Below, in pieces: positions 1,908 through 64,000 of a stretch of 64,000 nt of DNA. The notes under the pieces were generated by a model. The model saw only the letters and a program-made list of their open reading frames with translations. It had not been told where the DNA came from and made no database searches. This DNA comes from a virus (Duplodnaviria > Caudoviricetes). The stretch covers positions 1 through 64,000 of IMG/VR virus record IMGVR_UViG_3300025416_000002; one strand, 5' to 3'. The first letter of the stretch is position 1. Every line of letters starts with the position of its first letter. The position numbers and the translations under genes were made by a program.

Positions 1908-4265
1908 ATGCCATCACAGGATTGGAGTGCATCTGCTGAGCTAGGCCGTATGAGATCGGCTGGTATCACAGGTCCCAAGAACCCAGTAACCAGAAGAGTA
2001 GCCAATAAGCAGTTGCTTGATATGGCACGTACTCCTGGTGCCATGGGTGCCATGAGCTCTAGTCCTTTGCTTGGACCTTCTGAAGGCAGATCACGCCTCA
2101 ACTCCCTTAGCTCTGCCGACTTCCTCGGTGATTCAGGGATGTCACGTACTGCTAACCGCAGAACTGCAGCAGCCACTGGATCAGACGCACAATGGGCATG
2201 GCCTAAGCTACACGACCCATTTGAGTACTGGCGTGAGCGCACGTGGTGGTTCAACATGGAGGACCCAGACGAGCAGACTCGTAAGATCCGTGACTGGGCA
2301 CGTCTTTTGTACACCACTCACTACTTGGTGCCTTCGCTTATTGACATCTATACTCGTTACCCATTGTTGGACATCGAGCTTATTCACCCAGACAAGCGAA
2401 TCTCTGACTTCTACAACGACCTGTTCTTTGACGGTCTGAACTACAACGAGTTCCTTTACGACCTTGGTCGTGAGCACTGGACCGTTGGTGAAGCATTCGC
2501 TATGGGATCCTGGCACGATGGTATCGGTGCTTGGGAAGAAGATGAGATCATCAACCCTAACGACGTTATCGTCGCTAAGAACCGTGCTCTCAGAACCTAC
2601 CAGTACCACATCAAGGTTCCTGAAGAGATTAAGCGTCTTATCGAGCGCAGAGATCCTCCACAGGAATACGCAATGCTTATGCAGCTCTACCCAGACGTTG
2701 TAGCCTGGGCTAGACAAGACAAGGAGATCCCGGTCTCTGATGTCATCATGAAGCAGATCAAGTTTAAGACTAACCCTTGGAGCGAGCATGGTACTCCTAT
2801 TCTTCTTCGTGCTTTTCGTATGCTTATGCTCGAAGAGTCCCTCAACGCTGCTCAAGACGCTATTGCTGACCGTCTGTATTCTCCCCTTATTCTTGCTACT
2901 CTTGGTCTGCCTGATGTAGACCAGGACGGTCCATGGGTCCCTGACGCTATGGAACTCCAGTCTTTGAGAGACGACCTCTCCATGGCTATCAACTCAGACT
3001 TCCGTCTGATGACATACCACCACGGTCTTCAGATTCAGAACGCATTTGGCCGTGAGTCAATGCCACGTTTGGATGCTGACTTCATGCGTGTTGAGTCAAA
3101 GGTCATGCAGGTATTCGGTATTGGTGCTGACTTGCTCCAGGGTGGTAACGGCGGTACATACGCTGCTGGTGCCCTTAACCGCGAGCTTATTACTCAGATG
3201 CTTTCAACATACCAGCACAAGATCGAAAGCTTTATCCGTTCCCGAATGGAACCAGTAGCAGAAAGACAGGGTCACTATGAAATGCGTTCGGTGGGTGGCC
3301 AAATGGTACCTGTCATGGAAACTGTTCTCATGGTTGATGAAGAGACTGGTGCTGAATATGTTGAAGAACGACCCAAGCTGGCCATTCCAGAAGTAAGGTT
3401 CCGTTCTATGAACCTGAGAGACGAAACCGTCGAGCGTGGCTTCCTGCAGCAGTTGATGGCATCTGGTTTCCCAATCTCTCTCAGCACTCTTGCTGTTAAC
3501 ATCCCAATTGACTTCGATGATGAGATCGAAGCACGCAAGGATGAGAAGATTAAGACTGTCGTTGCTGAGCAGCAGTACAAGAAGGAACTGTTTAACCGTC
3601 TTATGACTTTGCAGTTGCCTATCCCACCAGAGTACGTACAGGAATACCAGGCTTATCTAGCAATGCTCGAGAACCCACAGCTTGGAGCACAGCTTGCTCC
3701 TGGTGCTATGGCTAGCTTGATTGTTCCACCAGCTGCTCCTAACTTGACTGGCGAAGCCATTAAGAATAGCGACGCTGCTATGGGTGCTCAGATCTACCCA
3801 AGTGTCAACAACATGGCACAGCAGATGAATCAAACGCAACGTGGTACTGAACGTCAACGTCCACAAGAGTCTTACGAGCAGCGCAAGAATGCTCCTAAGC
3901 CGAACAAGAAGGGTCCTAAGAATGGACCCAAGAAGAAGACCGCGAGCGTAAGCGGCTGGGATGATGAGTACGATGATACTCCGTTCGAGACGATCACATA
4001 CGGTGACCGTATGAAGTTTGCTGTACCATTCGAGAGCAAGAAGCGTAAGCGCATGAAGCTTGCTCGTGGTATGAAGATTGTAGCTGATGATAGCTATGAG
4101 AAGTTCAACGAAGAAGAGTTCAAGAAGCACTTGGCATCGATCATTGATGAGCCAATGATTCAAGAACCAACAAATCTTAACGAACACAGCAGTGGCGAAG
4201 GTGGCATGGACCAGCCTGCGCGTAAGCAAGTTGATCCGACTAAAGAAGAACCTTTTCCTTCCTAG
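1908..4265 (+). CDS. Portal protein
   Basis: 785 aa upstream of protease, scaffold and capsid genes; portal-type motifs (WGTPIL-like EHGTPILLRAFR; ADRLYSPLILATLG); charged C-terminal tail. Confidence 0.85.
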   Translation: MPSQDWSASAELGRMRSAGITGPKNPVTRRVANKQLLDMARTPGAMGAMSSSPLLGPSEGRSRLNSLSSADFLGDSGMSRTANRRTAAATGSDAQWAWPKLHDPFEYWRERTWWFNMEDPDEQTRKIRDWARLLYTTHYLVPSLIDIYTRYPLLDIELIHPDKRISDFYNDLFFDGLNYNEFLYDLGREHWTVGEAFAMGSWHDGIGAWEEDEIINPNDVIVAKNRALRTYQYHIKVPEEIKRLIERRDPPQEYAMLMQLYPDVVAWARQDKEIPVSDVIMKQIKFKTNPWSEHGTPILLRAFRMLMLEESLNAAQDAIADRLYSPLILATLGLPDVDQDGPWVPDAMELQSLRDDLSMAINSDFRLMTYHHGLQIQNAFGRESMPRLDADFMRVESKVMQVFGIGADLLQGGNGGTYAAGALNRELITQMLSTYQHKIESFIRSRMEPVAERQGHYEMRSVGGQMVPVMETVLMVDEETGAEYVEERPKLAIPEVRFRSMNLRDETVERGFLQQLMASGFPISLSTLAVNIPIDFDDEIEARKDEKIKTVVAEQQYKKELFNRLMTLQLPIPPEYVQEYQAYLAMLENPQLGAQLAPGAMASLIVPPAAPNLTGEAIKNSDAAMGAQIYPSVNNMAQQMNQTQRGTERQRPQESYEQRKNAPKPNKKGPKNGPKKKTASVSGWDDEYDDTPFETITYGDRMKFAVPFESKKRKRMKLARGMKIVADDSYEKFNEEEFKKHLASIIDEPMIQEPTNLNEHSSGEGGMDQPARKQVDPTKEEPFPS

Positions 4266-12107: not shown

Positions 12108-15100
12108 ATGGCTTACCCCACATATACAACTCCTAGATCAATCGCTGGCGCAGCTGCACCTTCTTACCTCTCTGCAACGCTTGCTAGTGGGTACTCTGCT
12201 GGTCAAACAATTACAGTTGGCAATACATCTGGCTGGTATGAGGTAAGCTCGAGTGGCACTACTACAACAAACCCATTGGGAACTAGTGGTGTATTTACGT
12301 TGGTGGTTGATTATGGTCTCAGCACAGAAGAGAAAATTCTGTGTGCATCAGGTGCAATTTCTATTGGTGCAAACTCAGTAATCTATGTGTGGACCGATGG
12401 CATAAACAATGGTCGTGGCTGGGATGGTACAGCGTCAGTTGCTCACGCTGTTGGCAGTGGCACAAATCCTAATGTATTCCTCGTTAGAACTGCAGTAGAT
12501 GACCTTCAGTTCAATACATCAGCGGCCACACTAACCAATAACCTTGCTACTCTTTCGGGTCAATATGTGGTTACTTCCGGAGTCGTTACAGCTCAAGCTG
12601 GTTATATTTCTACGATCTCAGGCAAGCAAGTAACTGATGAAGCAAATATTGCCAGTTTGTCAGGTAGTTTAGCTACTCTCAGTGGACAATATGTAACAAC
12701 TAGCGGGATTGTAACCAGCCACACTGGGTCAATTGCAAGCATCAGCGGTAGCCTTAATACTTTGTCAGGTCAATATGTTGCCACCTCTGGTAGCCTCACA
12801 ACACTTTCGGGGCAATTTGTTGCTTTAAGTGGTTCATACACTGCTACATCTGGAAGCCTCAACACTGTCAGTGGAGTTGCTTACTCTGCTTTGCAACGAT
12901 CAGGTGGCACTATCAGCGGTGCATTGAACATCACCAGCCCCATCATTGGTGGTGTTACCGCTACTAGCGGACAATCTCTTGTATGGAACAACACACAATG
13001 GGTGCCAGCAACGGTTAGTGGCGGCGGTGGAGGGATCACTTCTCTTACCGGTGACGTAACTGCAACTGGCACAGGTGCAGTAGCTGCAACACTTGTAGGA
13101 ACCACTGCTGTTAGTGGTGTAGTCAATACCATAATCAACGTTAACTCAACGGTGACAGGTACAGTTGCAAATCTTGCTACTCTTAGTGGACAATTTGTTA
13201 CACTTAGCGGTGCTTATGCGACCACATCAGGTAATCTAAACACTGTAAGCGGTGTTGCTTATGCTGCTTTGCCAGGATCCGGTGGAACCATCAGTGGTAA
13301 CCTTGTAGTTGCTTCTGGTCTTACTGTTAGTGGAACTATAAGTGGAACTACTGCTGTTTTTAGTGGTGGCGTAACAGCACAGTACTTATCAGTAAGTGGC
13401 ATCCCAGGTTCTACGTCTGGTTCTAGATTCGTGGGTGCTATTTCAACTGGTATTAGTGGCATACCTTACGGTCCTAATTCTGGTACTTATACCGTAGGCG
13501 ATTTTGTAACTGACCAAGCAGGTAAAATCTGGGTCTGCTATAGTGGCGGCACTCCTGGTCTTTGGACTACGACACTTTACAGTCTTCCTATCTATAGAAC
13601 CTATAGAGGTGGTGTAGGCGCAGCAAATAATGCTAATGGTGTAAGTATCCCAACGACAGGATCGGGACTCTTGTTAGCACCCAATGAGCAAACTATTTTG
13701 CAAATTGGTAATACACAGGGTAATGGAGTTACCTGGACATTACCTTTTAACCCTTCAAATGGTAGCATTAATACTTTTATTAATAGTAGCAATGGTTACT
13801 ATACATATCTTTTGCCATCTGGTACGGATACAATTAATGTAAATAACACTGTTTATTCTGGTACTAGTAGCCCAGGTTTGTACATTGGTCCTGGTGCTTG
13901 GTACCAGTTTAGCTATGATGCTTTTGGACAGGGCAGTGGAAAAGGTGTTTGGTTTGCATTCTCCAGCAACCAGGCTCAATATTTATCTGGTAATTTTTCC
14001 AACGTTACAGTTACAGGCACTCTAAACGCTATTGGCCCTACGAATACATTAAGTGGGACAAATAATTTATTTGGTACAACAACTATTAGTGGTAGTTACG
14101 CTTTTTACCCTGCGTTATCAGGTACACCTACAGGAGCTGCAGGCGGTGATCTTACAGGTACTTACCCTAACCCAACGTTAGTTGGAACCACAAATGTAAG
14201 CGGAATTGTTAACACTATTATCAATGTTAACTCAACGGTGACAGGTACCGCTGCTAGCTTAACTACGCTAAGTGGTCAGTATGTTGCCACTTCCGGTAGC
14301 CTTACAACGCTAAGCGGTCAGTTTGTAGTGTTAAGTGGGGCATACACAGCGACTTCAGGATCTTTGAACACCGTTAGTGGTGTAGCTTATGCTGCCCTGC
14401 CAGGATCCGGTGGAACTATTAGTGGTAACCTTGTTGTTGCTTCTGGTCTTACCGTTAGTGGCAATATTGCTTCTAGTGGTACATTCTCACTTGGCCAAAC
14501 CAGTTCACTAAACATTGTTCCTTTTGGACAAATTTACGCTCCAATCTCTTTTGGTCCAAGCTACGCTTTAATGTATAATAATGCCGGTGGTTACTTCCAG
14601 AGCACTCTACCGAGCGTTGCATTTAGTACATGGGCGTCTTTAACCAACAATGCAACTCTTGGTGGTAACTTTACCGTAGCAAGTAATCTTACTGTATCTG
14701 GCGTGTCTACTCACATTGGCAACGCTACATTTAGTGGAACTGTAACCATTGGTGGTAATAGCGTAATGACAAGTGGTTATACCGCTGGCGGTGACCTTTC
14801 AGGTGCTTACCCCAACCCAACCGTTGCTGCTATTCAGGGTAAGAGCATCAGCACGACGCAGGCAACGCTTTTGTCGCAGATGAGCAACATCGTCACGCAC
14901 AACACCGCGAGCAACCCCACCGTCACGGCTGGTGAGTTCTCGGTAGTTCCCTCGTCGGGCGTTACGGGTGCGCTCACCCTCACCCTGCCCTCGGCTCCGG
15001 CAAACGGAACCATCAACTACATCTTCAACCAGAACGTCACCTACTCCATCACCCTTGCCGCAGGTGGCACGGACAAAATCCAAAACGGCGCGAGCAGTGT

Positions 15101-16565
15101 CTCGTCATTGTCGCTGGCCTTCCTCTATTCGACCTGCTACACCGTCGAGTATTACAACGGCTTTTGGTACGCCGTCGCTGGCCCCTTCAGTGGCATCACG
15201 GGAACCGGCTCGTTGGTTTATGCTGGTGGTCCTTCAATCTCAACGCCAACGCTAACTCAACCAACAATCGCAGGCTCTGCTTCGTTTTTAGCAACAACTA
15301 ACACAGCCTCGGTTTTGGCCGCTGCTGTTCCCGCCACTCTTGCGAACGGCAACGGTCCAGTTTATATTTACACGGCGAACCCAACCGCTTCGTATCCAAT
15401 ATTGATGACCACATATCGCACTGGCTCGGCTCAATACTCTAGCACCGCAACACTTCAAGTCAACAATGGTGCGACCGCTTACTTGCCATCCTCAATCACC
15501 ATTGACGGATACCAACTTGCCGCATCTGGTTCCACGCCAAGTCTTCCTACTAACGGTCAAACATCGCCCACCTATACGGTTACGGCGGCCACGGGTAACG
15601 GAACTACCGTCACCTACACCTGCGCCAACTCACTTACCGTAGGAACCATTGTCTCAATCACGGGTCTTGGCATCGCTACGGGTTCTTCGCTCAACCTAAC
15701 GAGCGTGACCGTCGCATCCGCTAACTCTACGCAGTTCACGGTCACGAACACCACGGTAGGTACTTCAAGCGGAACAGGAACGGCAACGCCAGTACGTTCT
15801 TTTACTACCTATTACCAAGGTGGAACTCAGTGGGCTTCGGCAGACCCCAGCACATGGGCTACTTATACAATTACAGTAATCAATACAGCAGCGAACAACT
15901 CAGTTGTCTTCCTCTCTAAAACGGCTGCTGGGGCAGGATTGCCAATTACACAGGGTGGAACAGGATCAACCACTGCTATCTCTGGGTTTAACAACCTTGC
16001 TATCTCTGGTGGTACTGTTGGTGGCAACCTGGTAGCTGCTTCTGGTCTTACCGTATCTGGTGCTTTAACGCAAATTGGCAATGCTTCGTTTAGTGGTACA
16101 CTCACTGTAGCTAGTGCTATTATCAACCCTATTCTTCAGGGTGCTTATGAAGTTGTATCATACAGTGGATCAACAGTGCTTAGCGGAACAGCTACTCCAG
16201 CTACGCTTAATGCAGCAAACAGCTCTTTCTACTTCTATAATACAGCACCATCTGGTTCATATACAGTAGCAATCACCGGAGCACCAACCGTATCTGGTGT
16301 AAGTGCCACTTTTGCTTTGCTTGTAAATAATGGTTCTACGGCTTATCTGCCCAGCAACGTTACCATTAATGGTAATCAGGCGGGTGCAAGTAGCTCAGCA
16401 CTCCCATTGCAGGGCGCAACAAACAATGGTATTACTACGTACTACCAAGGTGGTACAGCATGGTCATCAGCCGATGCCAACACTCTTGATTCTTATACGT
16501 TTACTGTGATTTGCACGTCAAACACGCCTACTTGGACACTGTTAGCAGGATTGACAAAGTTCTAA
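12108..16565 (+). CDS. Large fibre/adhesin-like virion protein (1485 aa) with SG heptad repeats and mosaic modules
   Basis: S/T/G-rich; two GGDL(T/S)GxYPNPT motifs; internal duplications; duplicated C-terminal TTYYQGGT.W.SAD domain. Confidence 0.8.
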   Translation: MAYPTYTTPRSIAGAAAPSYLSATLASGYSAGQTITVGNTSGWYEVSSSGTTTTNPLGTSGVFTLVVDYGLSTEEKILCASGAISIGANSVIYVWTDGINNGRGWDGTASVAHAVGSGTNPNVFLVRTAVDDLQFNTSAATLTNNLATLSGQYVVTSGVVTAQAGYISTISGKQVTDEANIASLSGSLATLSGQYVTTSGIVTSHTGSIASISGSLNTLSGQYVATSGSLTTLSGQFVALSGSYTATSGSLNTVSGVAYSALQRSGGTISGALNITSPIIGGVTATSGQSLVWNNTQWVPATVSGGGGGITSLTGDVTATGTGAVAATLVGTTAVSGVVNTIINVNSTVTGTVANLATLSGQFVTLSGAYATTSGNLNTVSGVAYAALPGSGGTISGNLVVASGLTVSGTISGTTAVFSGGVTAQYLSVSGIPGSTSGSRFVGAISTGISGIPYGPNSGTYTVGDFVTDQAGKIWVCYSGGTPGLWTTTLYSLPIYRTYRGGVGAANNANGVSIPTTGSGLLLAPNEQTILQIGNTQGNGVTWTLPFNPSNGSINTFINSSNGYYTYLLPSGTDTINVNNTVYSGTSSPGLYIGPGAWYQFSYDAFGQGSGKGVWFAFSSNQAQYLSGNFSNVTVTGTLNAIGPTNTLSGTNNLFGTTTISGSYAFYPALSGTPTGAAGGDLTGTYPNPTLVGTTNVSGIVNTIINVNSTVTGTAASLTTLSGQYVATSGSLTTLSGQFVVLSGAYTATSGSLNTVSGVAYAALPGSGGTISGNLVVASGLTVSGNIASSGTFSLGQTSSLNIVPFGQIYAPISFGPSYALMYNNAGGYFQSTLPSVAFSTWASLTNNATLGGNFTVASNLTVSGVSTHIGNATFSGTVTIGGNSVMTSGYTAGGDLSGAYPNPTVAAIQGKSISTTQATLLSQMSNIVTHNTASNPTVTAGEFSVVPSSGVTGALTLTLPSAPANGTINYIFNQNVTYSITLAAGGTDKIQNGASSVSSLSLAFLYSTCYTVEYYNGFWYAVAGPFSGITGTGSLVYAGGPSISTPTLTQPTIAGSASFLATTNTASVLAAAVPATLANGNGPVYIYTANPTASYPILMTTYRTGSAQYSSTATLQVNNGATAYLPSSITIDGYQLAASGSTPSLPTNGQTSPTYTVTAATGNGTTVTYTCANSLTVGTIVSITGLGIATGSSLNLTSVTVASANSTQFTVTNTTVGTSSGTGTATPVRSFTTYYQGGTQWASADPSTWATYTITVINTAANNSVVFLSKTAAGAGLPITQGGTGSTTAISGFNNLAISGGTVGGNLVAASGLTVSGALTQIGNASFSGTLTVASAIINPILQGAYEVVSYSGSTVLSGTATPATLNAANSSFYFYNTAPSGSYTVAITGAPTVSGVSATFALLVNNGSTAYLPSNVTINGNQAGASSSALPLQGATNNGITTYYQGGTAWSSADANTLDSYTFTVICTSNTPTWTLLAGLTKF

Positions 16566-60751: not shown

Positions 60752-63700
60752 ATGACAGATAAACTTGTCCACCTCCACGTTCACACCGAACACTCATTCC
60801 TGGATGGACTTCAGACAGTAGACCAGCTCGTAGATCGAGTGGTATCTCTCGACCAAGAAGCTGTAGCTATCACTGACCACGGTGAGTGCAGCGGTCACCT
60901 TCGCCTTCAGCATGCAGCTGACAAGGCTGGCATCAAGCCTATCTTCGGTATGGAAGGATACTTCACCGACAACCGGTTCGATAAGACTGGTAAGAAGGGT
61001 GAGAACTACGACCACATGACCATCGTGGCTATGAATGCCAAAGGTCTGGAGAACCTGTGGTCTCTGTCGAGTCTAGCTTATATCGAGGGTAGCTACTACG
61101 GCAACCCACGCTTTGACTGGGAACTCCTGGAGCGTTACAACGAGGGCCTGATCGTTACTGGTGGCTGCATGGGTGGCTGCATTGGTAAGCACCTCAAGGA
61201 TGATGGTATCTACCAGCGTGCTGTAGAACGTATCAGCCGTTACCAAGCCATCTTCGGTGATCGTTTCCACCTTGAGCTGCACACTTACCTTGACCCTGAG
61301 AGCAACGAGTGGAACATGCGAGTGGCCGAAGCAGCCATTGACTACAGCGTTCCTCTGCTTGCTGTCAGCGACGCACACTACGCTGAGCCTGACCACTGGT
61401 TTGCTCACGAGCTCATGACTGCTGTGCAGATGGGCAAGACTGTTGACGACCCCACACGATTCAGCTACGGTCCTAACCAGCTGTGCATCTTCTCAGAGGA
61501 GGAGACACGTAGTCGTCTAAGTTATTTGCCTGAGTCACTCGTTGACCAGGCGATCAATCGCACCAACGAGATTGCACAGATGTGTGATGCCCGTGTACCT
61601 GGTGCACGCAAGATGCCTGTGTTCTACAACACTGCAGCGATGGACGAGCGCAAGCTCCGTGAAACTGTAGAAGAAGGCTTCAAGCGAAAGATCGAAGGCC
61701 ACGTAACTGAAGAGATGCTCCCTGTCTACCGTGAGCGTATCGAATATGAAATGGATGTCATTGTAACCCGTGGGTTCCCGGGGTACTTTCTAACCGTACA
61801 AGACATTATTAACTGGAGTAAAAATGAAAACTTTTTGGTTGGTCCTAGCCGTGGTTCAGTCGGCGGAAGCCTTCTTGCTTATGTTATGGACATCACGGAA
61901 GTCGATCCGATCCCTTCTGGCCTTATCTTTGAGCGCTTTCTTAACCCTGAGCGCGTCTCTATGCCTGATATTGACATTGACATGCCAAAACTTGAGCGTG
62001 GAATGGTGCGCGACTATCTGGAGCGTAAGTATGGCCGCAACAATATTGCTTCTATCGGCACTCTCAACACGTTAGGCGCACGCCAGGCTATCCGAGACCT
62101 ATGTCGTGGCATGGGCATCAGCAAAGACGATGCAGCAACCATGTCTGACATCATCGATGACGACTGGAACATCAAGAACCGTGGTGCAGACTGGGCTACC
62201 GTCTACAAGCAGTACCGTTCTGAGTACGCTCCATGGGTTACCAAGTACCCACAGCTCTTCGAGACACTGCCTGAGGTAGTCAACCACATCCGCCACGCCA
62301 GTGCACACGCTGCAGGCATTGTGATCAGCAAGGAACCACTCGTTGGTGCTATGCCATTGCGCTACAGCCAGGTGAACGATGATATCCGTACGCAGTTTGA
62401 CATGGGCGACATCGATGAGCTGGGCTTTGTCAAGATCGACTTGCTCGGTCTACGTACGTTGAGTACACTCATGGCTGCATTGGATCTAATCAAGGAGAAC
62501 AACGGTGGCACCCTACCTTTTGACCATTTCTATGAATGGAACAACAACTGGTCAAAGTATTACGACGACGCTGGTGTCTGGGACTCAATTGGCACCGGTC
62601 ACAATATTGGATGCTTCCAGATCGAGACAGGTTCCCTTAGAAGTTTGGTTAAGCGATTCCTCCCTCGTAACATCGAAGACCTCTGCACAATGATCGCTAT
62701 CTATCGTCCGGGTATTACCCGAGCGGTGGATGCAGAAACTGGCTTGAACCTCCTCGAGATGTACATGCAGAAGCGAGAAGGCAAGCGCAGGGTAACCTAC
62801 AAGCACCCTAAGCTAGAAAAGATGCTGGGTGTCTCGTACGGTAGTTTCGTGTACCAGGAGCAGATCATGGAGACCTGCGTCGAGCTCGCTGGGTATACCA
62901 TCGTAGAGACTGACCGTGTGCGTAAGGCAGTGGCCAAGTCTAACTACGAAGACATGGTGGAAGAAGCTGAGATCTTCGTGCGCAAGTGCGTGGAGAACGG
63001 CGTAGACAAGGAAGTCGCCAAGTCGATCTTCGATGACATGCGTGCCTTTGGTATGTATGGATTCAACAAGTCTCACGGTTATGGCTACTCCATGCTGACC
63101 TACTGGACTGCCTGGACCAAGCACCACTACCCGCGTGAGTACATGACTGCGCTGTTCCGTACCAACCCCAAGGACAATGTGGTCTACACCCGTGAGGCTC
63201 GTCGCATGGGCATCGAGGTGCTGGGACCTGACATCAACGAGAGCGGTGGCAACTTCACCCTTACCAAGTCAGGCAGCATCCGCTATGGCTTGAATAGTGT
63301 CAAGTACATCTCTGGCTCTGCCCAGGAGCTACAGAAGCTGGGTCCATTCTCAAGCATGGAAGACTTCGCAACGCGTGTCCCATCGAAGAAGGTGAACAAG
63401 CGTGCTGTCATTGCCATGATCAAGTGCGGTGTGTTCGACAGCATCTGTGGAGACGCTCGGACAGCTCTGCGCCAGTACCTCGAATACCGTAAGGAGAAGA
63501 ACCTTGATAATCCTTGTAGCCCTGATTGCCCTCATTGCATTGGACATCTCACTACATTTGATTGCTACGCAGATCTGCAAGAGAATGTCATGGCTCGCGG
63601 ACAAAACGAGCATGAGCTACTGGGGACTATGGTTAGTGTCGATCCTCTTGCTGATTATCTGGGCATCATAGAAGAAGAGCACAATTTCCCTGGAGAGAAG

Positions 63701-64000
63701 AAGATGTTCCAGGGAGAGAAGGCTATGATCGGTGGGATGATCTCCCAAGTCAAGGAGCTGGTCACCAAGAAGGGCAAGAACCCTGGGGCGGAGATGTGCC
63801 AGGTGTGGATCGAGCTGCCCATTGACAACCTTGACGATGAGCTCATGCTTGACGAAGATGTAGAATCAACCAAGGATGACAACGTCCAGGTGGTAGCATT
63901 CCCTGATACGTATAAGCGTATCAAGGAAGATATCCAGGTGGGTACCCCCGTCCTGGTAGAGGTGCAGAAGCTCCGTGATGGATTAAGTCTTCGCAGCATC
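60752..64000 (+). CDS. dnaE: DNA polymerase III alpha subunit (3' end beyond window, no intein seen)
   Basis: HLHVHTEHS PHP domain, RGS..GSL.AY, FERFLNPER.SMPDIDID, YQEQIM, YGFNKSH. Confidence 0.96.
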   Translation, partial: MTDKLVHLHVHTEHSFLDGLQTVDQLVDRVVSLDQEAVAITDHGECSGHLRLQHAADKAGIKPIFGMEGYFTDNRFDKTGKKGENYDHMTIVAMNAKGLENLWSLSSLAYIEGSYYGNPRFDWELLERYNEGLIVTGGCMGGCIGKHLKDDGIYQRAVERISRYQAIFGDRFHLELHTYLDPESNEWNMRVAEAAIDYSVPLLAVSDAHYAEPDHWFAHELMTAVQMGKTVDDPTRFSYGPNQLCIFSEEETRSRLSYLPESLVDQAINRTNEIAQMCDARVPGARKMPVFYNTAAMDERKLRETVEEGFKRKIEGHVTEEMLPVYRERIEYEMDVIVTRGFPGYFLTVQDIINWSKNENFLVGPSRGSVGGSLLAYVMDITEVDPIPSGLIFERFLNPERVSMPDIDIDMPKLERGMVRDYLERKYGRNNIASIGTLNTLGARQAIRDLCRGMGISKDDAATMSDIIDDDWNIKNRGADWATVYKQYRSEYAPWVTKYPQLFETLPEVVNHIRHASAHAAGIVISKEPLVGAMPLRYSQVNDDIRTQFDMGDIDELGFVKIDLLGLRTLSTLMAALDLIKENNGGTLPFDHFYEWNNNWSKYYDDAGVWDSIGTGHNIGCFQIETGSLRSLVKRFLPRNIEDLCTMIAIYRPGITRAVDAETGLNLLEMYMQKREGKRRVTYKHPKLEKMLGVSYGSFVYQEQIMETCVELAGYTIVETDRVRKAVAKSNYEDMVEEAEIFVRKCVENGVDKEVAKSIFDDMRAFGMYGFNKSHGYGYSMLTYWTAWTKHHYPREYMTALFRTNPKDNVVYTREARRMGIEVLGPDINESGGNFTLTKSGSIRYGLNSVKYISGSAQELQKLGPFSSMEDFATRVPSKKVNKRAVIAMIKCGVFDSICGDARTALRQYLEYRKEKNLDNPCSPDCPHCIGHLTTFDCYADLQENVMARGQNEHELLGTMVSVDPLADYLGIIEEEHNFPGEKKMFQGEKAMIGGMISQVKELVTKKGKNPGAEMCQVWIELPIDNLDDELMLDEDVESTKDDNVQVVAFPDTYKRIKEDIQVGTPVLVEVQKLRDGLSLRSI
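61761..61789 (+). promoter_or_regulatory. Promoter inside dnaE upstream of nested ORF A
   Basis: TTGTAA-17 bp-TACTTT; dyad AACCC-GT-GGGTT at 61765-61776. Confidence 0.65.
61824..62075 (+). CDS. Candidate overprinted three-TM membrane protein (83 aa, +1 frame of dnaE): nested ORF A
   Basis: Own promoter; GGAG 5 nt before ATG; dnaE codon flip; stop formed by a rare TTA codon. Confidence 0.65.
   Translation: MKTFWLVLAVVQSAEAFLLMLWTSRKSIRSLLALSLSAFLTLSASLCLILTLTCQNLSVEWCATIWSVSMAATILLLSALSTR
62441..62469 (+). promoter_or_regulatory. Promoter inside dnaE upstream of nested ORF B
   Basis: TTGCTC-17 bp-TACACT. Confidence 0.5.
62505..62693 (+). CDS. Candidate overprinted protein (62 aa, +1 frame of dnaE): nested ORF B
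   Basis: AAGGAG 7 nt before GTG; promoter-like site upstream; milder codon shift. Confidence 0.4.
   Translation: MAPYLLTISMNGTTTGQSITTTLVSGTQLAPVTILDASRSRQVPLEVWLSDSSLVTSKTSAQ
63504..63671 (+). CDS. Candidate overprinted two-TM membrane protein (55 aa, +1 frame of dnaE): nested ORF C
   Basis: AAGGAG 7 nt before TTG; codon flip starts at TTG and ends at a stop formed by a rare ATA codon. Confidence 0.6.
   Translation: MIILVALIALIALDISLHLIATQICKRMSWLADKTSMSYWGLWLVSILLLIIWAS

Follow-up and report, generated by a model that had tools for sequence, protein, structure and literature searches.

The question raised by this locus is whether a phage replicase gene carries a second protein-coding gene inside it. 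The window analysed here is a stretch of 64,000 nucleotides, bases 1–64000 of an 80,551-bp IMG/VR viral record with an estimated completeness of 54%, and its last gene is dnaE, which encodes a DNA polymerase III (Pol III) alpha-like protein (60752..64000 in the window, to 64033 of the record). Within dnaE an open reading frame (ORF) of 55 codons plus a TAG stop occupies 63504..63671 in the +1 frame; like dnaE and the other features mapped within it, it lies on the plus strand. Each nested codon consists of positions 2 and 3 of one dnaE codon and position 1 of the next. Judging from the sequence comparisons set out below, we consider it likely that 63504–63671 encodes a second protein, its gene having been overprinted on dnaE in the +1 frame, and the most likely form of such a gene would be one of the phiX174 E-in-D kind, encoding a helical membrane hairpin.

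A preliminary description of this DNA had proposed a two-helix, 55-amino-acid protein overprinted on a Cys-rich insertion of DnaE, and the elements on which it built were all found. A Shine-Dalgarno-like AAGGAG (63491..63496), encoded by Lys-Glu codons of DnaE, stands 7 nt ahead of the TTG at 63504; the TAG stop (63669..63671) is formed by a dnaE ATA codon and the G of the next Glu codon; the product has 55 residues, and the quoted sequence NPCSPDCPHCIGHLTTFDC is present. Relatives were found by scans of IMG/VR and of metagenome contigs, the best 80 of about 500 metagenomic loci being taken, and 35 distinct dnaE sequences, 53–95% identical (query 63152–64000), were codon-aligned and reduced to 21 representative lineages. 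A homologous +1 ORF of 53–55 codons (66 in one case) was present in 27 of the 35 sequences and was broken in eight. The start codon was ATG in 19 sequences and otherwise TTG, always within one codon of the same alignment column (in L013 this column has TTG, and an ATG, the 20th case, follows six codons further on), and the stop lay within four codons of the same column in nearly all intact sequences. These positions make TTG 63504, from which the preliminary description had derived its 55-residue product, the better start. The motif AAGGAR was found 7–10 nt 5' of the start in most intact relatives, its source being nearly invariant DnaE Lys-Glu codons just after an invariant Arg. The DnaE proteins of cultured phages are only about 30% identical (query 63152–64000), and their use as a test of the frame was dropped as too distant a comparison.

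Wobble thymine over the nested frame

The wobble position of dnaE is the second codon position of the nested frame, so that a T at this position means that Leu, Ile, Val, Phe or Met is encoded there. In the window the fraction of wobble T was 0.49 inside the ORF and 0.26 across dnaE, placing the ORF in the top 0.4% of dnaE segments. The T-ending codons that the preliminary description had pointed to are real: GAT is used 6/6 times and CAT 3/3 times inside the ORF, with mostly C-ending codons in the flanks, against gene-wide counts of 31 GAT to 48 GAC and 5 CAT to 23 CAC (hypergeometric values of about 0.003 each). These two codons have no relevance to stops in the +1 frame, which can arise only where dnaE NTA precedes A or G, or NTG precedes A; the choice of GAT or CAT over GAC or CAC only converts a nested Thr to Ile.

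The bias recurred across lineages and mapped onto the two hydrophobic segments of the nested product. We corrected wobble T for the amino acid and for the codon usage of each lineage and averaged the excess over lineages (T3 excess). The excess showed two peaks, at codons 917–938 and 958–970, separated by a trough at codons 943–955 and bordered by flat flanks, and the best 53-codon segment of all dnaE began at codon 917, which is the TTG. The peaks correspond to hydrophobic helix 1 (63507..63569, residues 2–22 of the nested product), which overlaps the DnaE motif CX3CX2CX8C, and to hydrophobic helix 2 (63618..63668), which reaches the C-terminus and overlaps the DnaE motif ELLGTMVS-DPLADY; the inter-helix loop (63570..63617) was depleted of wobble T and carries 2–5 Lys or Arg residues in most lineages. 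The excess over helix 1 was +0.23 in intact lineages and 0.00 in broken ones; it was +0.25 over helix 2 and −0.10 over the loop. When the window's own clade was left out the excess still reached z = 4.0, and each helix segment exceeded every other segment of dnaE. The shift was from C to T only, with neither A nor G raised. The sequences L039, L055 and L057, whose frame has long been broken, showed no excess, and L053, in which the frame was broken recently, retained it.

Two alternative causes of the excess were rejected. A control for the next base gave observed/expected ratios of 1.45 for helix 1, 1.60 for helix 2, 0.70 for the loop and 0.92–1.00 for the flanks, which excluded a CpG or next-base context, and the excess was uncorrelated with amino-acid conservation (r = −0.01), which excluded the placing of optimal codons at conserved residues. 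Over the two helices, and nowhere else in the nested frame, selection maintains wobble T in dnaE and with it a nested Leu, Ile, Val or Phe.

The strongest competitor of this explanation, which we nevertheless regard as unlikely, is that wobble T serves dnaE itself or a nucleic-acid element and that the hydrophobic +1 frame is a by-product; slowed translation near the four-cysteine (Cys4) module of DnaE, a U-rich or unstructured stretch of messenger RNA and a small hairpin are the candidates. Such a cause would cover part of the data, as the start codons, the absence of stops and the hydrophobicity partly follow from wobble T. Moreover, the run GAT CCT CTT GCT GAT TAT, whose wobble positions are almost invariant among the relatives, sits in a predicted 10-bp hairpin with an anti-Shine-Dalgarno-like loop, GAUCCUCU. 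However, AT-rich and GC-rich lineages share an absolute wobble T of about 0.5 (0.5–0.58 in the AT-rich ones, where T-ending codons are common), which argues against a cluster of rare codons, and the three broken sequences named above that lack the excess have kept both the Cys4 and the DPLADY motifs. Third-position A was not raised, as noted, the consensus fold of the hairpin was weak and held no compensatory pair, and over helix 1 the nucleotides varied and composition alone was kept.

A by-product would also leave unexplained how the nested stop has been relocated through rare ATA codons. Usually this stop is formed by codon 971 (Leu, Val or Ile) together with the A of Ile 972. Where codon 971 is unable to make a stop, Ile 972 is ATA and gives TAG, as in the window and L029, in L043, and in L044, L048 and L053; in L018 the ATA is at codon 969 instead. 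ATA was never used at codon 972 where codon 971 already supplies the stop. In this family ATA makes up about 6% of Ile codons, and the stop-forming ATA of the window is the only one among 67 Ile codons of the gene. On the DnaE tree at least three or four separate relocations are required, and they provide a line of evidence that is independent of wobble T. Together with the retention of the frame described below, they show selection for keeping the nested frame stop-free and its start and stop in place.

The predicted hairpin spans 63629–63658, with 10 base pairs, four of which are G-U, and a loop, UCGAUCCUCU, that resembles the CCUCC end of 16S ribosomal RNA. It was kept in 16 relatives with no compensatory change or pair, and the consensus fold amounted to −7.3 kcal/mol. 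A conserved RNA structure was rejected as a candidate, only this weak hairpin without covariation having been found.

Retention of the frame among diverged relatives

The architecture of the nested ORF was tested by asking for a start within one codon of column 917, a frame open to column 968 and a stop in columns 969–972. The null distribution was obtained by resampling synonymous codons, with the DnaE protein sequence and the codon usage of each lineage held fixed. The complete architecture was observed in 15 of the 21 lineages, against an expectation of 0.88. For the open frame alone, the null probability per lineage was 0.02–0.43 (median of about 0.15), so that the summed values predicted about 3.6 open lineages where 15 were seen; one more lineage stops 2–3 codons early.

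We regard it as quite improbable that the ORF arose by chance, its openness and conservation deriving from shared ancestry and the amino acids of DnaE with nothing selected. Long hydrophobic +1 ORFs do occur elsewhere in this genome, eight of the 35 sequences are broken, and two other stretches of dnaE are open in the +1 frame in nearly all relatives. Conserved openness by itself was therefore rejected as proof of a gene, these control stretches being open as well, and it was the resampling null that separated the target from them: their null open probabilities were 0.82 and 0.76, which means that the DnaE protein sequence alone predicts their openness, as compared with about 0.15 at the target. 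The target is the most diverged part of dnaE, with the lowest nucleotide identity to relatives (0.47–0.75), so the pattern has been held despite divergence and is not a shared tract, and no other part of the gene has so large a T excess, even when the window's clade is left out. Saturation of synonymous sites is incomplete, which leaves some room for a chance origin, but four-fold sites are close to saturation between lineages (identity of 0.41 compared with 0.32 expected from codon usage).

The start of the conserved unit also bears on what lies upstream of it. A programmed +1 frameshift would yield a truncated DnaE without its oligonucleotide/oligosaccharide-binding (OB) fold, ending in hydrophobic helices, and no independent small protein. 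Replicase genes of the C family are known to use frameshifting (dnaX), and about half of the intact lineages, the window among them, have a +1 frame that stays open over about 25–30 codons ahead of the start column. In six lineages, however, a +1 stop stands immediately before the ATG, in others it lies 7–13 codons upstream, and the T excess begins exactly at the start column; no shift-prone motif was noticed, although no search was aimed at such motifs. We give this explanation very little weight. The same region, 63429..63503, had been described as the beginning of a leaderless 80-amino-acid form starting at GTG 63429. The 80-residue open frame does exist in the window, but in about half of the intact lineages +1 stops at varied places interrupt the stretch from the GTG position to the start, and upstream no excess of wobble T is seen, which places this stretch outside the conserved unit. 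Of the promoter proposed for the leaderless form, GTGAAC-17-CATGAT, the hexamers are present; it falls below the threshold of a promoter scan and is not conserved. Finally, an AT-rich recombinant tract swapped into dnaE can be dismissed almost entirely as the source of the odd codon usage, since, although mosaic tracts exist in this gene (codons 340–400, window compared with L016), the identity of the target to every relative is below the gene mean, T alone rises and not A, and the excess recurs in lineages of all base compositions.

Several observations weigh against the presence of a nested gene. The lineages are related to one another, so that significance is overstated by the binomial contrast, and the start, the open frame and the hydrophobicity, each following in part from wobble T, are not fully independent lines of evidence. 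In a codon-identity (synplot-like) scan the ORF as a whole was ordinary (observed/expected of 1.03, rank 263 of 1040), and the DPLADY stretch was the only part with high conservation of codon identity; selection therefore seems to be aimed at hydrophobicity and not at particular residues. Hydrophobic, T-rich +1 segments are common in the structural genes of this phage, and when the genome is viewed singly the target ranks about 8th among non-overlapping segments of the 80-kb record, behind segments of structural genes. It is not unique in its own genome, and for this reason the evidence for more than chance comes from the relatives. The start in the window is a weak TTG, and the Shine-Dalgarno sequence is absent or weak in L016, L017, L040, L043, L044 and L048. 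With about 16 residues helix 2 is short, and an Asp is found within helix 1 in about half of the lineages. About five scattered losses have to be assumed within the 32-sequence ingroup that carries the ORF. Finally, no homologue of the product was found in a collection of 5.8 billion proteins (44–140 amino acids), in Pfam or in PHROGs.

Predicted product, origin of the frame and the DnaE cysteine module

If the ORF is expressed, the nested product would be made by ribosomes that initiate internally on the dnaE message, at TTG 63504 or, in most relatives, at an ATG, and that use the AAGGAG supplied by Arg-Lys-Glu codons of DnaE. It would comprise 53–55 residues (a length that is uniform across intact relatives) forming two hydrophobic helices with a Lys/Arg-bearing loop between them. 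By the positive-inside rule such a hairpin would sit in the cytoplasmic membrane of the host, its loop facing the cytoplasm and its two ends lying outside. The proposal of a small two-helix protein was thus borne out to the extent that the nested frame behaves as a conserved coding ORF with two hydrophobic segments, whose 15-residue Kyte-Doolittle maxima were 2.9 and 2.3. An AlphaFold model of the product consisted of a helix, a break and a second helix (residues 2–32 and 38–54), with a mean predicted local distance difference test (pLDDT) score of 74.

As to a role, given the gene, we see roughly an even chance that the product is a membrane-acting accessory factor of the replication phase, for example one of superinfection exclusion or host take-over. 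The likeness to superinfection-exclusion proteins of the T4 Imm/Sp type consists only of size, hydrophobic helices and location in a replication operon, with no homology. Should the hairpin have a further part in replication, for example by positioning the replisome at the membrane or setting its timing there, its gene would overlap dnaE for a functional reason and not incidentally. A lysis-timing or holin-like role, given the gene, is distinctly less probable. The class II holin topology put forward in the preliminary description agrees with the number of helices, but the charged C-terminal tail, the lysin neighbour and a family match were all missing: Lys and Arg are located in the inter-helix loop, and the ORF of nearly every lineage stops no more than a few residues past helix 2, leaving no C-terminal tail. 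No endolysin was found with six lysin Pfam families across the window's record and four relatives of 72–89% completeness, and a lysis cassette was not located; three families were used on the window's record first and five on the four relatives, three of these five being run on the window's record as well. A PHROGs scan of 22 members of the family gave only two stray single-member matches, both to virion proteins.

The nested ORF has a narrower spread than dnaE. The outgroups L066 and L061/L062 possess the Cys4 motif in DnaE and lack the two-helix ORF; in L066, the most distant, the Cys4 linker is present with no wobble-T signal. In L061 (3501–4370) and L062 (894–1757) we found a one-helix +1 ORF of 38–42 codons with the same start column, in which T enrichment was restricted to helix 1 (z = 1.6 and 2.8). 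This one-helix ORF may be an earlier stage of the nested gene. The alignment of the Cys-rich stretch with the open frame, which had been suggested as a check, showed co-occurrence in part: the stretch was present in 35/35 sequences and the open +1 ORF in 27/35, the other eight having kept the stretch with C-ending codons or +1 stops. These eight are read best as outgroups that would never have had the full ORF, together with secondary losses. The distribution partly shows that the full gene would have arisen in the ingroup ancestor, after the Cys4 linker existed, and was lost about five times later. A tentative idea, to which we assign a rather low probability, is that a membrane-protein gene was born step by step within an essential replicase gene, that this family preserves the stages, and that the T signal decays after losses.

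The Cys-rich stretch of DnaE itself (63515..63565) had been regarded as either a metal site or a by-product of dual coding. The latter is contradicted by the invariance of CX3CX2CX8C in all 35 relatives, including the eight with a broken nested frame, and the motif is, by this comparison, a real feature of this DnaE clade that is older than the nested ORF; it belongs to DnaE and not to the nested gene. The metal site was upheld as probable: the stretch was modelled at pLDDT 87–90 and is a probable metal-binding module. It occupies the position of the internal beta-clamp-binding motif Q..LF of cellular and distant phage DnaE, F-[DE]-C of the Cys4 motif aligning with L-F-[DG] of distant DnaE, and by this alignment it represents a remodelled linker, not a simple insertion. 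The clamp-binding linker may have been converted into a probable metal site, or else cysteines now frame the clamp motif. Alignments to the solved Thermus and Mycobacterium Pol III alpha structures end just before the Cys4 motif, and the E. coli match spans it. A fold search with the model of the DnaE C-terminal part returned only Pol III alpha and OB folds, and nothing for the Cys4 module.

Genomic setting and comparison with known systems

The dnaE gene comprises 1093 codons (60752–64033), its end past the window being read from L001, and is the older, host gene of the proposed pair. Its product matched the Pfam entries PHP, DNA_pol3_alpha, finger and HHH_6, and the C-terminal model matched Pol III alpha structures in the fold search. 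The gene is flanked by cpn10 and recA, one on either side. Related records of this phage reach 107–132 kb at 72–89% estimated completeness. The phages are uncultured and come from metagenomes alone. In one lineage (L024, L025, L026, L058 and L059) the dnaE frame, followed back from its end, stays open for 770 codons only, compared with about 1100 elsewhere; the gene may be split or frameshifted, contain an intein or begin with a different N-terminus.

Other sites in the window attracted attention. At 61772–61950 (dnaE codons 340–400, the region of the catalytic PDIDID) the window is 94–95% identical in nucleotides to L016, which belongs to a different major clade and is 77% identical gene-wide. 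The identity over these codons is similarly high to L035 and L048, which would be consistent with a recombinant tract or with strong synonymous constraint. They show the second-highest wobble-T excess of dnaE and overlap a +1 ORF, 61824–62075 (83 amino acids), which is hydrophobic here and broken in most lineages. Genome-wide, the local excess of wobble T is strongest (z up to 5.3) at 2760–2918, in the gene 1908–4265, and at several places in the long gene 12108–16565 (for example 13767–13925); the +1 frames at these sites encode highly hydrophobic sequence, and that at 2760 stays open for 52 codons.

ORFs that lie inside other genes are discarded by gene finders, and nested genes have found acceptance chiefly in very small phages, in which the size of the genome is thought to make overlap necessary. 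The comparative evidence presented here points to a selected, unannotated membrane microprotein in the main replicase gene of large tailed phages. A large genome with no shortage of space would support gene novelty over compression as the driver of overprinting. The approach, in which a position-specific wobble-T excess across diverged relatives is compared with a synonymous-resampling null, can be used as a detection method for any gene family. A clade with outgroups, a possible one-helix intermediate and repeated losses would also be a testbed for de novo gene birth. A second gene could be lost unnoticed when phage polymerase genes are recoded or codon-optimised.

Among known systems, class II holins such as S21 of phage 21 are likewise small phage proteins with two transmembrane helices. 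In these holins both termini lie in the cytoplasm, the C-terminal tail is charged, a dual start is frequent and the gene stands beside that of the endolysin; neither that tail and topology nor a dual start or endolysin adjacency was seen here. Lambda Rz1 is a small envelope-targeted protein encoded in the +1 frame wholly inside Rz of a double-stranded DNA phage. Unlike the product predicted here, it is a lipoprotein with a signal peptide that partners the product of its host gene, and it lies in a lysis cassette. The S gene of hepadnaviruses is, like the proposed nested gene, a membrane-protein gene in a shifted frame of a polymerase gene, placed over a variable linker of the polymerase (PMC8227390), and its origin by overprinting was inferred from phylogeny (PMC8227390). 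However, S belongs to an animal virus and encodes a virion-essential, multi-pass envelope protein of about 226 amino acids, whereas the candidate described here would be a dispensable 55-residue hairpin of a tailed phage.

The E protein of phiX174 spans the membrane with a single helix, its target and role are known (cell-wall synthesis is blocked and lysis follows), and its gene lies in a 5-kb genome under size pressure; in these respects E differs from the nested ORF, for which two helices are predicted, which lies inside a replicase gene and which has no sequence similarity to E. The proteins of +1 de novo genes are generally enriched in hydrophobic residues (PMC8227390). In E within D of the Microviridae, a T at the third codon position of D becomes a T at the second position of E and yields a transmembrane segment (PMC8227390). 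The proposed gene in dnaE resembles E in being wholly nested in the +1 frame, in the route through T to a Leu-rich transmembrane segment and in its presumed internal initiation (PMC8227390).

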